DNA of 64,000 bases from Escherichia coli (GTDB taxonomy: Bacteria > Pseudomonadota > Gammaproteobacteria > Enterobacterales > Enterobacteriaceae): NCBI RefSeq assembly GCF_003018255.1, contig NZ_CP027440.1; one strand, 5' to 3'. A program made the position numbers. Of the stretch, positions 52,101 to 55,100 are shown one piece after another. The stretch's first letter is position 1. Each line of letters opens with the position of its first letter.

Positions 52101-55100
52101 ACCCAGCAAAGCGCTCACGACATTACTGGAGCCTAACCAGGCGCTATTGCGAATAATGGTGCGAAACGCGCCATCTGCAAACCAATGTTTGATGTTAAAA
52201 CCCGCCAATTCAGCCTGACCTTATCGTTGATAGTAAAAAGTATCCCGCCAGCCTTAAGTTAAACTTCGGCGGTCAGAAACGATGGCAACCAGAGAAACCG
52301 CCTTCTGTGCCTGTTCCAGCACTTCGCTGTAGGGCGCTCTGGAATCAATCTCAAGAATTTTTGTGCCGTTATAGCCAATCGTCGACATGACGCCGATTTT
52401 GTCCTGCAGCTCGGCATAGTCATGGTCAGGCTTGCGGGAGATGGCAGTATCAATATCAATCCCCAAACGAATGATTAATTCAGGACGGTATTGCGCCATT
52501 TGTTGGTATAAACGCCGTTCGCGCTGCGCCAGAAACATGCTGATTTTCCCGGTCGCACGTTCGACGCCGATCCCCGGTCCGTCATAATAAAAGCCCGAAA
52601 TTTCAGCCTGCGGGAAGCGATCGCTGACCACCAGAACGCCACTTTGCGCCAGTCGCTGAACCTTGCGTAGATTCGCCATTCTTCGCAGCGAGAAGCAGTA
52701 CATAATCACCGCCGCCCATAGCGCTGGAGATTTGGTTTTCATGCTTTGGGTTTTCGAGGATTTGGCCGCCAGTCGCCGTTCGAGCCAGACGCCAACCAAC
52801 GGCAATCGTTTGATTTTGTCGCCGTCTTCGCCCGAGAGCAGCCCCAGATAGCGCCGCTCGGTTTGCCAGTGTTGTTGCAGCGATTTCACCAGGTCGGTGG
52901 TCAGTGTGGATTTACCGGTGCCATCACACCCGACCACCGCAATCAGCCCCGGAATGTAGTTGGGCTGCGGCGCGGTTGTACTATTAACAGTTTGTGTTTG
53001 TAGTGCGTCCATTCGTTAAATCATCCCCTATCCATTTTGGTGATCAGGAAAGCGCGGCGTGAATTGCGCGTAGTGACGCTTGCAGAATTTCATCGGCGGG
53101 TTGCCGACCATCCAGTTCAAGGATCTTTGCACCATTAAATGTCAGTTGCGGCGTAACGGCGATTTTTTCCTGTAACGCCGCCAGTTGGTGGTCAGGTTTA
53201 CGCGCAAACGCGGTTTGTTCATCAATGCCAAGACGAATCAACAATACGGGCAAATAAGACGCCATCCATTGGTACAGCTTCAGCTCGCGCTGCCTTAACA
53301 TTTTTATCCAACCGTTACCGCCCGTGGTTTTTGCCAATTGCGGGCCATCAAAGCGAAAACCCGGCACTTCAACCTGCGGGTAGCGGTCGGTGATGAGCAG
53401 ATAGCCTTGCTGGCTTTTACACAACATTTTGCGAAACTTGTACGCCCGCCAGCAGGAAAGCAGATAGATAACCAGCGCAGTAATATTGCCAGGTGGTGTG
53501 GAGGGCTTTTCGTGCACATGTGCCGCTTTACTTCGCAGATAACGCCCAAAAGGTGCGCCAATAACAGGGAGCTGTGAAATCCATTCGCCAATTCGCCCGG
53601 ACGATTGCCCGAGATAAATGTGTTCTGTTGGCATTGTTGCTGCCAGTTCATTTACCAGGCTTGCCGTGAGGGTCGATTTACCTGAACCATCACATCCTAC
53701 AATGGCAATAACACGCACTGGCGTGGAATTAATTATTGACATATTACGTTGATTCACGAAAAACCCGGCAGCAAATAATGTATTGAATATTACGTGGTCC
53801 GTGCTCAGAATATCCGTTCAACCTTATTGTGACAATGGTTAATTGTGACATTGACCTGAATTACGCTTTCATCAAAAACATATTAACCAAATAAATATTT
53901 TGGATGGATATTTAAATTTAAGGATATATTCATGCAGTCAATAATACCTCCATTAATTGCCGTTATTGGTAGCGATGGTTCAGGCAAGTCAACGGTGTGT
54001 GAACATCTTATTACCGTTGTCGAAAAATATGGTGCTGCCGAAAGAGTTCATTTAGGAAAACAGGCCGGAAATGTCGGTCGTGCAGTGACAAAATTACCGT
54101 TGATGGGAAAGTCTCTGCACAAGACTATTGAAAAAAATGAAGTGAAAACGGCAAAAAAATTGCCGGGTCCGGTTCCGGCCCTGGTGATCACCGCTTTCGT
54201 CGCCCGCCGACTGTTACGCTTTCGTCATATGCTCGCCTGTCGTCGTCGCGGGCTGATTGTCTTAACCGATCGTTATCCTCAGGACCAAATTCCTGGCGCT
54301 TACGATGGTACGGTGTTCCCACCTAACGTTGAAGGCGGCCGGTTTGTCTCATGGCTGGCAAGCCAGGAACGTAAAGCATTTCACTGGATGGCGAGCCATA
54401 AGCCTGATCTGGTCATCAAACTCAATGTTGACCTTGAAGTTGCCTGCGCGCGTAAACCCGACCATAAACGGGAATCGCTGGCGAGGAAGATTGCCATAAC
54501 GCCACAGTTAACCTTTGGCGGTGCACAACTGGTTGATATCGATGCTAATCAGCCACTGGAAAAGGTGCTGGTTGATGCAGAAAAAGCGATTACGGATTTT
54601 ATGACCGCGCGTGGTTATCACTAGTCAAAAATGGAAATGCCCGATCGCCAGGACCGGGCATTTTCAGGAAGGTTAAATCAACTGCAATGCTATCCAGTAC
54701 AACCCACCAGAAAGAAAAATCGCCGCCGGTAAAGTAAATACCCACGCCATCAGGATGCTGGTTACCGTTTTACGCTGTAACCCACCGCCGTCCACCACCA
54801 TCGTTCCTGCTACGGCAGATGAGAGTACGTGTGTTGTGGAGACGGGCATCCCAATATAACTGGCAAGGCCGATAGACACTGCCGCCGTCATTTGTGCCGC
54901 CATGCCTTGCGCATACGTCATGCCGCGCTTACCAATCTTCTCACCGATGGTCATCGCTACACGACGCCAGCCAATCATGGTGCCAATGCCGAGCGCCAGT
55001 GCTACCGCCATGATGATCCATACCGGTGCGTACTCAATGGTGCTTAACATATCGCTGCGCAGTTTTTTCAGCAGGTTCTGGTCTTCTTTACTGACGCCTG

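Follow-up and report, generated by a model that had tools for sequence, protein, structure and literature searches.

Among described systems, the nearest precedent for the locus considered here is PPK3, the heteromeric polyphosphate kinase of the archaeon Sulfolobus (Saci_2019/Saci_2020; PMC12995831), which likewise combines thymidylate kinase (TMK)-like paralogs with a CHAD-domain protein encoded in the same gene cluster, and whose regulatory subunit has lost the arginine of the DRX motif (PMC12995831). The operonic paralogs named 'dTMP kinase' in Sulfolobus were not identified as thymidylate kinases; that activity has been confirmed for Saci_0893 only. Related chemistry is found in PPK2, also a P-loop kinase with a lid, which builds or consumes phosphoanhydride bonds with a polyanion as acceptor, as we propose below for the E. 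coli proteins. A second precedent is CpgB, the ceramide kinase of Caulobacter, which produces an anionic phosphosphingolipid from ceramide and is encoded beside spt and the LptF2G2 paralogs (PMC10331486, PMC11324152). The Cpg headgroup genes CC_1159, CC_1161, CC_1153 and CC_1152 encode proteins with CDP-alcohol-transferase-type, CDP-DAG-synthase-type and nucleotidyltransferase domains, and E. coli is not among the organisms listed with Cpg orthologs in the paper on that pathway. A third is lipid A assembly, in which the cytoplasmic P-loop kinase LpxK phosphorylates the precursor of an outer-membrane lipid, flipping and export by Lpt follow, and the phosphate is later edited by PAP2 phosphatases and a methyltransferase of the ICMT family.

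We compared these systems with three genes of Escherichia coli, yghR, yghS and yghT, located on contig NZ_CP027440.1 within the analysed stretch of 64,000 nucleotides (the window). The window is 99.9% identical to the E. coli chromosome NZ_AP025214.2, where yghR is given as a hypothetical protein and the other two genes are named yghS and yghT; the PGAP/RefSeq product name of these two is 'dTMP kinase'. The kinase genes and their surroundings are organized as follows.

41651..42793, minus strand: yghO, N-acyltransferase, bacterial ceramide synthase, 'aca' (PMC9386255)
43156..47252, plus strand: ceramide precursor operon, comprising aasR (acyl-ACP synthetase), cerR/epi, acpR and spt (serine palmitoyltransferase) (PMC9386255)
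47287..49433, minus strand: lptG- and lptF-like permease paralogs (LptG2, 47287-48366; LptF2, 48363-49433), candidate sphingolipid exporters (bioRxiv 10.64898/2026.04.12.717747)
49463..50026, minus strand: YtfJ-family periplasmic protein (TIGR01626, 212 bits, above cutoff)
50035..50859, minus strand: unannotated gene, 'Ybl138', 274 aa, predicted CHAD-like double four-helix-bundle fold
50859..52208, minus strand: yghQ, MOP-family (Wzx/MurJ-like) flippase, 449 aa, directly downstream of yghR
52254..53012, minus strand: yghR, 252 aa, R-type TMK-like P-loop kinase; Walker A GCDGTGKST, DRFPQ, SRKPDH
53044..53757, minus strand: yghS, 237 aa, GTG start, S-type TMK-like P-loop kinase; GCDGSGKST, DRYPQ, ARKPDH
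53758..53931, no strand: divergent yghS/yghT intergenic region with one sigma-70-like site (minus strand, 53835-53807)
53932..54624, plus strand: yghT, 230 aa, T-type TMK-like P-loop kinase
54635..54663, no strand: GC-rich hairpin with a 12-bp stem between the convergent yghT and pitB, a likely bidirectional terminator

The initial annotation had described three paralogous P-loop genes at 52254-54624, with products of about 230-250 aa, and the coordinates of the open reading frames agree with it exactly. The pairwise alignment that it called for yielded identities of 44% for YghR and YghS (BLASTP E 1e-62), 37% for YghS and YghT (E 4e-54) and 34% for YghR and YghT (E 6e-48), far above chance, and the three proteins are paralogs. 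The motifs said to be common to all three are indeed invariant in a three-way alignment, with G-x-D-G-x-G-K-S-T close to the N-terminus, D-R-(F/Y)-P-Q midway along the protein and R-K-P-D-H towards the C-terminus. The transcriptional arrangement is also as first described: yghS and yghR run in the same direction as yghQ and the Lpt-like genes, the gaps being 31 and 45 bp, and yghT is divergent across an intergenic region of 174 bp, in which an FlhDC SELEX peak has been reported for K-12 (PMC9962212). Apart from the trio, the E. coli locus has no gene annotated as a headgroup enzyme, be it a glycosyltransferase, a CDP-alcohol transferase or a ceramide kinase of the DAGK-like type, nor does the sphingolipid locus contain a paralog of LptB.

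The proposed assignment to a thymidylate kinase-like fold was borne out by structure prediction, performed on YghS, one of the three paralogs. Fold search and sequence-profile comparison of YghS revealed full-length homology to TMK, with the NMP-kinase fold, P-loop, DRX motif and lid, and not the fold of ABC or AAA+ ATPases, again in keeping with what had been suggested. LpxK is absent from the best 60 structural matches of the YghS model. The three proteins share with Tmk the five-stranded P-loop kinase fold, the DR(Y/H) motif after strand 3, a basic lid and an acidic residue in the P-loop, which, however, reads ExxGxGKT in Tmk and GxDGxGKST in YghRST. Sequence identity to Tmk is 16%. Pfam and NCBIfam searches with the three proteins yielded nothing beyond P-loop-level matches and sub-threshold matches to dTMP kinase profiles: TIGR00041 scored 30.9, 24.8 and 25.5 bits, its curated cutoff being 83.25, and Thymidylate_kin (PF02223) was not significant for any of them (i-Evalue of 0.02 or worse). 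In place of the NMP-binding subdomain of Tmk, YghRST appear to carry a larger, K/R-rich subdomain, and they have invariant residues of their own (G50, G54, P64, G67, P127-Q128, D137-G138, E158, P188-D-H190 and K198). The net charge of this acceptor-side subdomain is +8.8 to +14.5 across the family, with YghT the most basic of the three, compared with -1 in E. coli Tmk, and the pI is 9.6-9.8 compared with 5.3. The catalytic, phosphate-clamping arginine of Tmk occupies the position of R125, which is retained in YghRST, as is the helix residue R104, and the position of the FPxR-type arginine is taken by S, V or Q. We propose, from motif conservation, that YghR, YghS and YghT represent a distinct and probably catalytically competent branch of the thymidylate kinase superfamily.

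Conservation across genomes points in the same direction. In a set of 80 loci, which comprises the closest relatives of YghS and is hence a biased sample, we identified 211 kinase domains, including 68 of the R, 77 of the S and 63 of the T type. The signatures GxDGxGKST, R104, D124-R125-x-P-Q, D137-G138, E158, R186-K-P-D-H190 and K198 are conserved at approximately 100% in each of the three clades, so that all three paralogs look active; the conservation extends to the Walker A lysine, on which the kinase assignment had been made to depend. All three orthogroups occur together in 55 of the 80 loci, spanning Gamma-, Beta- and Alphaproteobacteria and Myxococcales, the order S followed by R with T nearby is almost universal, and S-R and T-R fusions exist. 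The trio is ancient, composed of three old orthogroups that stay together. The initial notion of a triplicated kinase fold stands as regards the fold, whereas a recent local triplication is rejected on the basis of the orthogroup analysis. Of 5426 complete E. coli genomes, 4743 carry the segment, and 4066-4240 (about three quarters or more) an intact ceramide-synthesis and export locus. Approximately 500 E. coli genomes, including K-12, have kept yghRST and lost spt, the 3' end of yghQ and the CHAD gene, the key partner genes having been lost in K-12 through an IS5 insertion. K-12 being the strain in which most genetics has been done, this loss explains why the kinase genes are still 'y-genes'. 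The literature on yghR, yghS and yghT contains only incidental mentions (a knock-out list, the FlhDC SELEX study and the SlyA regulon) with no function reported, and the K-12 knock-outs had no phenotype in one screen.

The gene neighbourhood in other taxa is dominated by lipid functions. Within 10 kb of the kinases, spt is found in 46 of the 80 loci and absent from the other 34, yghQ is found in 55 and the gene for the CHAD-like protein in 51, and no LptFG paralog is present in 50. Among 46 diverse loci, 37 contain at least one lipid-specific neighbour, such as LptFG paralogs, an LpxE-like PAP2 phosphatase (17 loci), a second PAP2 (8 loci), an OlsC/LpxO-like acyl hydroxylase (11 loci; E 2e-66) or, in the T operon, an LmtA-like lipid-phosphate methyltransferase (16 loci; TIGR04571, E 1e-32). 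Five of the 46 have none of the tabulated conserved lipid, flippase or CHAD-like neighbours, and the YtfJ-family gene accompanies the kinases in Enterobacterales only. Homologs of LpxE, LpxF and LmtA, the enzymes that edit lipid A phosphates, adjoin the kinases in other taxa, although the lipid here would be a ceramide and the LmtA-like and PAP2 genes are missing from the E. coli locus.

The 274-aa neighbour strengthens the parallel to PPK3. Ybl138 of E. coli has no Pfam, NCBIfam or PDB-sequence match, and its fold became apparent only by structure prediction and fold search. The predicted structure consists of two four-helix bundles related by pseudo-symmetry, and UniProt lists orthologs with 28-42% identity and TM scores of 0.93-0.97 under the name 'CHAD domain-containing protein'; judging from the model, Ybl138 has the CHAD fold of the polyphosphate-binding type. 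Its invariant residues are R88, K92, H93, R95, H105, H193, R196, K197 and H237, the pI is 9.2, and H193-x-x-R196 resembles, at the level of the pattern, the published H-x-x-R core for polyP binding. The locus therefore shares with PPK3 both the clustering of at least two TMK-like paralogs, with R, S and T adjacent in E. coli, and the CHAD protein. It differs in having three paralogs rather than two, with R125 conserved at 100% in all three clades, and no obvious regulatory subunit, since all three proteins keep the DRX arginine; furthermore, the PPK3 neighbours ppx and sixA are replaced by genes for the flippase, ceramide synthesis and lipid-phosphate modification.

Given the company of a CHAD protein, a flippase and ceramide genes, YghR, YghS and YghT most likely phosphorylate a sphingolipid rather than nucleotides. 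Specifically, we consider it an even chance that the three are non-redundant kinases building a phosphate headgroup on the ceramide made by the adjacent genes. Working on the cytoplasmic side of the inner membrane, they would take as substrate the ceramide lipid supplied by yghO, aasR, cerR, acpR and spt, and would assemble the anionic headgroup in successive steps, one of them phosphorylating a hydroxyl and the remaining ones a phosphate, as in canonical TMK chemistry, so that a diphosphate, triphosphate or oligophosphate results. The CHAD-like protein would bind the phosphate chain, and YghQ would flip the product, as in the logic of lipid A synthesis, with export by LptB2-LptF2G2 to follow; the PAP2 phosphatases and LmtA-like methyltransferase found in the same operons of other taxa may trim or cap the phosphate. 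The basic acceptor-side subdomain argues for this role, as does the lack of another headgroup enzyme in the E. coli locus. That the acceptor is the lipid, how many phosphates are added and in which order, and any assembly into a physical complex are inferred from this combination of evidence. CpgB, which has the same proposed role, possesses a diacylglycerol kinase-like fold, unlike YghRST, and none of the Cpg-type headgroup genes is annotated in the E. coli locus; the trio would be an alternative headgroup system to Cpg. A bolder version of the proposal, which we regard as improbable, is that most E. coli strains and many other Proteobacteria make a ceramide with a chain of three or more phosphates, which the three kinases would build one step at a time, the CHAD protein would hold or measure, and a MOP flippase and Lpt-like machinery would deliver to the outer membrane. 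Our literature search retrieved no paper on ceramide pyro-, di- or triphosphate and nothing useful on E. coli sphingolipid products, no product or headgroup having been described for the locus and no phosphorylated E. coli sphingolipid having been reported.

The similarity to PPK3 raises the alternative that a heteromer of the three proteins, together with the CHAD protein, is a soluble kinase interconverting ATP and free polyP, the lipid genes being mere neighbours. We find this unlikely. Searches with tblastn detected no PPX or PPK1 homolog within 10 kb in the 80 loci and a SixA/PhoE-type phosphatase (His_Phos_1) in a single one (L002); retention of the DRX arginine in every paralog departs from PPK3; profile similarity to 2plr (E 6e-6) covers the P-loop stretch only and is weaker than that to canonical TMKs; ppk and ppx are already present in E. 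coli; and a role in free polyP metabolism would not account for the repeated presence nearby of flippase, PAP2, LmtA-like and ceramide genes. It seems equally doubtful that the kinases phosphorylate a soluble headgroup precursor or nucleotide-linked donor, the product of which another enzyme transfers onto ceramide: the E. coli and other enterobacterial loci encode no transferase for this step, and the very basic surface and a kinase-flippase fusion better fit a membrane-bound anionic acceptor.

That fusion comes from a distant branch of the kinases, in which a single protein joins a Polysacc_synt_3 flippase, NTP_transf_5 and the kinase; in another locus of this branch, the kinase gene directly follows a flippase gene. 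We count this recurring kinase-flippase link in favour of lipid headgroup synthesis. The same branch also lends some weight to the idea that YghRST modify a polyprenyl-phosphate-linked glycan or exopolysaccharide intermediate handled by YghQ, unrelated to sphingolipids: YghQ is Wzx-like, the NTP_transf_5-fused kinases reside in Wzx/Wzy polysaccharide loci with flippase, GT4, Wzy_C and sulfotransferase genes, a kinase fusion to GT4 exists, and GT4 genes lie near the kinases in Oecophyllibacter. However, glycosyltransferases are rare neighbours in the YghRST subfamily proper (5 of 46 loci), where spt, PAP2, LmtA-like and OlsC-like genes dominate, and the enterobacterial loci have none, which makes a glycan acceptor improbable. 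On the strength of these Wzx/Wzy loci, the ancestral acceptor may nevertheless have been a glycan or polyprenyl-linked intermediate and not a sphingolipid.

A role as ATPases, energising or regulatory subunits for YghQ or the LptF2G2 exporter, could be envisaged from the missing LptB paralog and the co-transcription of the kinases with flippase and permease genes. Overall we see little chance of this. The fold is that of NMP kinases and not ABC proteins, the lid (RKPDH) and the DRX motif show no variation, which is typical of phosphotransferases, and half of the loci and more (50 of 80) do without a nearby LptFG paralog. MOP flippases are not known to be ATP-driven. For LptF2G2, the possibility was rejected on the fold and on the finding that Caulobacter LptF2G2 bind the housekeeping LptB (bioRxiv 10.64898/2026.04.12.717747). 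An anti-phage defence role was rejected because PADLOC matches were confined to P-loop length (E 2e-4 or worse). Finally, the PGAP product names of yghS and yghT, and a remote but real homology to Tmk that includes the fold and the catalytic motifs, would suggest that YghRST are true dTMP or nucleotide kinases. This is very improbable in view of the subthreshold profile scores, the apparent replacement of the dTMP-binding region by the basic family-specific subdomain, the Sulfolobus precedent and the presence of the housekeeping tmk (b1098) at a separate E. coli locus, between mltG and holB.

In our view, the RefSeq 'dTMP kinase' labels on yghS and yghT are a mislabelling, and confirmation would correct a widespread annotation error. 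The preferred assignment of YghRST to ceramide phosphorylation makes the trio, so far anonymous 'ATP-binding proteins', specific candidates for the missing headgroup chemistry and ties it to the CHAD protein and to phosphoanhydride chemistry of the PPK3 type. If confirmed, it would establish a new family of lipid-phosphorylating enzymes and identify an anionic lipid of the outer membrane that matters, in pathogenic E. coli, for host interaction and for resistance to polymyxin and detergents. A lipid-anchored oligophosphate, if real, would constitute a new class of membrane lipid, and YghR, YghS and YghT a membrane-bound relative of PPK3.

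The interval 52254-54624 of the window, part of an E. coli chromosome with 99.9% identity to strain 2017.09.02CC, is filled exactly by the ORFs of yghR, yghS and yghT, listed here with a nearby gene:

50035-50859, minus strand: 274-aa hypothetical protein (UniProt 'Ybl138'), predicted CHAD fold
52254-53012, minus strand: yghR, ORF of 252 aa
53044-53757, minus strand: yghS, ORF of 237 aa
53932-54624, plus strand: yghT, ORF of 230 aa

The three products are clear paralogs (R/S: 44% identity, E = 1e-62; S/T: 37%, 4e-54; R/T: 34%, 6e-48), and the Walker A (GxDGxGKST), DR(F/Y)PQ and RKPDH motifs are all invariant across their alignment. 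The three paralogous genes and shared motifs reported in the initial annotation are thus real, and gene order and strands agree with its description: downstream of yghS and yghR, with gaps of 31 and 45 bp, the same strand carries yghQ (MOP flippase), the 274-aa gene, a member of the ytfJ family and paralogs of lptF and lptG, and yghT is divergent. A hairpin with a 12-bp stem and T-runs (54635-54663), likely a bidirectional terminator, lies between yghT and the convergent pitB, an adjacency kept only within Escherichia.

Single-sequence searches with YghR, YghS and YghT yielded only P-loop matches and sub-threshold dTMP kinase matches, the one in Pfam not being significant. When a profile (A2) built from 55 diverse members of the family was run against all PDB sequences, thymidylate kinases (TMKs) ranked first (PfTMK, E = 2.6e-13; Aquifex and Thermotoga TMK, ~5e-11), the alignments taking in the P-loop, DRY strand, lid and C-terminus; hhalign against E. 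coli Tmk gave 95.4% probability (E = 1.9e-8, 191 columns, 16% identity). Because these matches are to TMKs, the initial interpretation of a thymidylate-kinase-like fold holds, and the findings that it named in advance as refuting are not borne out.

A profile of the three sequences searched against 1.84 billion representatives retrieved 2158 relatives, 139 of them at E ≤ 1e-30, and a one-genome-per-species scan located 78 loci in Enterobacterales, Xanthomonadales (Rhodanobacter, Luteibacter), Betaproteobacteria (Nitrotoga, Methylotenera, Sulfuritalea, Gallionellaceae, Rhodocyclaceae), Alphaproteobacteria (Acetobacter, Sphingomonadales, Hyphomonadaceae), Myxococcales and one Planctomycetota MAG. 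Across 80 loci, taken as the best matches to YghS with only ±10 kb of context on frequently short contigs, identity clustering placed 211 kinase domains in three groups around E. coli R (68), S (77) and T (63), with 56-59% identity within and 35-44% between groups; assigning each domain to the E. coli protein with which it shares most identity gave the same group for 205 of the 211. A complete R/S/T set occurs in 55 of the 80 loci; S is directly followed by R nearly everywhere, with T lying close by, mostly divergently. Local triplication is ruled out by the three separate orthogroups found across proteobacterial classes and Myxococcales. The Walker A lysine, D124-R125, D137, E158, R186-K-P-D-H190 and K198 are ~100% conserved in each group, and group-specific fixed residues lie on the acceptor side (positions 48, 51, 52, 55 and 58). 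Since three active-looking, non-interchangeable phosphotransferases have been kept together for so long, their joint retention implies three distinct steps, a hetero-oligomer, or both. Fusions of the S-R (P0121) and T-R-like (Oecophyllibacter L002, P0122, P0123) types also occur; in Oecophyllibacter saccharovorans, the 493-aa ORF at 9836-11317 of L002 spans both domains, and the deposited gene call (438 aa) begins too late, leaving out the first Walker A. In the Sphingomonadales loci L072 and L077-L080, the sole kinase is of the S type; its neighbours are a different MOP flippase, an LmtA-like methyltransferase and one or two genes resembling nucleotidyltransferases (weak NCBIfam matches only). 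This arrangement looks like a reduced or alternative form of the system.

Unusually for the superfamily, the kinases have a pI of 9.6-9.8 (Tmk, 5.3). Between the P-loop helix and the DRY strand, in the subdomain where Tmk binds dTMP, the net charge across the family is +9.8 in R, +8.8 in S and +14.5 in T versus -1 in Tmk. An acceptor subdomain this strongly basic points to a polyanion as the acceptor, or to the surface of an anionic membrane. The 274-aa protein had no match in Pfam, NCBIfam or PDB sequences and is predicted to fold as a CHAD (polyphosphate-binding) domain; R88, K92, H93, R95, H105, H193, R196, K197 and H237 are invariant in its 16-ortholog alignment. CHAD domains are specific polyphosphate-binding modules with a basic core of the H-x-x-R type that accommodates a 9-mer and triphosphate (PMC6537752).

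The trio is encoded together with this protein, the flippase and genes for ceramide synthesis and export.

Genes near the kinases (tblastn with E. coli locus proteins, within 10 kb, 80 loci)
yghQ: 55/80
274-aa protein: 51/80
spt: 46/80
acpR: 46/80
cerR/epi: 44/80
aasR: 41/80
ytfJ-like: 33/80
LptF/G paralogs: 30/80
yghO: 26/80

In the window, 41651-49433 holds an intact ceramide synthesis and export block (yghO/bCerS, aasR, cerR, acpR, spt, lptG2, lptF2). A YtfJ-family periplasmic protein, a second copy beside the chromosomal ytfJ, is encoded at 49463-50026 (minus strand); only in Enterobacterales does it occur with the locus (33/80). When neighbours in 46 diverse loci were clustered de novo, families absent from the E. 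coli locus emerged, and at least one lipid-specific neighbour occurs in 37 of these loci; in other taxa, the trio is also found with lipid-phosphate phosphatases and a homolog of a lipid-phosphate methyltransferase.

Additional neighbour families (46 diverse loci)
Signal-peptide PAP2 phosphatase, best match lipid A 1-phosphatase LpxE: 17/46
ICMT-family membrane methyltransferase, best match LmtA (E = 1e-32, below ortholog cutoff): 16/46
OlsC/LpxO-like lipid acyl 2-hydroxylase (E = 2e-66): 11/46
Second PAP2, SepP/LpxF/PgpB type: 8/46
DUF2147-like proteins (assigned by eye, without NCBIfam match) and RND pumps: also present

LmtA is a lipid A 1-phosphate O-methyltransferase, and the LmtA-like gene is mostly in the same operon as T and PAP2. 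Such operons are seen in several Gamma- and Deltaproteobacteria (L054, 7535-9849; also L040, L046, L049, L053, L056, L058 and L062).

The ceramide genes have been characterised experimentally in E. coli B and Caulobacter (PMC9386255), and LptF2G2, with housekeeping LptB as partner, has been implicated in sphingolipid export (bioRxiv 10.64898/2026.04.12.717747). In the searchable literature there seems to be no description of a sphingolipid product of E. coli. The Caulobacter headgroup genes, CpgA-D among them (PMC11324152), lack annotated counterparts in the E. coli locus, whose only headgroup candidates are therefore the trio and the 274-aa protein. That YghR/S/T are headgroup kinases of the sphingolipid pathway is the most likely reading, at about even odds. 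Each enzyme would in turn add phosphate to ceramide made at the cytoplasmic leaflet, and in one or more of these steps the phosphate would be transferred onto another phosphate, the type of reaction known from Tmk or PPK3; the resulting di-, tri- or oligophosphate headgroup would be bound by the CHAD-like protein, and the lipid would be flipped by YghQ and extracted for the outer membrane by LptB2F2G2, with PAP2 and LmtA-like enzymes editing the phosphate where present. An oligophosphate lipid as the specific product is a much less probable, tentative suggestion.

PPK3, a heteromeric reversible polyphosphate kinase of Sulfolobus, is encoded by saci_2019 and saci_2020, annotated as thymidylate kinases, in an operon shared with ppx, sixA and a gene for a CHAD protein; its catalytic subunit has a basic cleft where the dTMP site would be, and the DRX arginine is no longer present in its regulatory subunit (PMC12995831). 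YghRST likewise combine TMK paralogs with a CHAD protein. However, there are three paralogs, all retaining R125; the neighbourhood consists of lipid and flippase genes; neither ppx nor ppk nor, outside L002, a sixA-like gene lies near the kinases in the 80 loci; and similarity to 2plr is below that to canonical TMKs. Because of these differences, PPK3 is a possible working model rather than the family of YghRST: by analogy the system may work like PPK3, and a PPK3-like soluble polyphosphate kinase appears unlikely. In L002 alone, a His_Phos_1 (SixA/PhoE-type) phosphatase adjoins the yghQ homolog. Phosphorylation of a soluble headgroup precursor is similarly doubtful.

A distant branch of the family consists of ~500-aa fusions of an NTP_transf_5-like domain with the kinase. 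The fusion gene directly follows a Wzx-type flippase gene in polysaccharide loci (P0168; L081, 5721-9482), P0219 unites a Polysacc_synt_3 flippase, NTP_transf_5 and the kinase in one protein, and in P0248 the kinase is fused to GT4. Because this branch also follows or is fused to a flippase, the kinase-flippase link is the deepest conserved association of the family, and it suggests that the acceptor is linked to the membrane and is flipped after its modification. These Wzx/Wzy loci also carry sulfation genes and another small P-loop kinase. Modification of a polyprenyl-linked glycan by YghR/S/T would fit such loci, but we regard it as improbable for the trio, and a role as ATPase or regulator of the neighbouring transporters as slightly more so. 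A true dTMP kinase activity is highly implausible: RefSeq (PGAP) names YghS and YghT 'dTMP kinase', a name that is unsupported because the curated TIGR00041 cutoff is widely missed (25-31 bits for YghR/S/T versus 83), the housekeeping tmk sits at another locus and the acceptor-side subdomain differs; the label was probably passed on in error, as happened with the PPK3 subunits of Sulfolobus.

Among 5426 complete E. coli genomes, 4066-4240 carry an intact ceramide-to-CHAD block and 4604-4743 carry intact yghRST. In MG1655, IS5 (insH9) stands in place of the stretch from aasR to the CHAD-like gene, and yghQ is cut to 355 aa (NC_000913.3 3130146-3131340 versus window 43156-51100), leaving yghR, yghS and yghT orphaned; K-12 is a natural deletion mutant of the locus. 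The lack of a phenotype in a K-12 knock-out screen therefore says little, since IS5 removed the partner genes there. The three genes are themselves already known y-genes. Apparently undescribed are their membership of an ancient set of three kinases that is linked to a CHAD protein and a flippase in the sphingolipid loci of bacteria, and the functional implication of that link.
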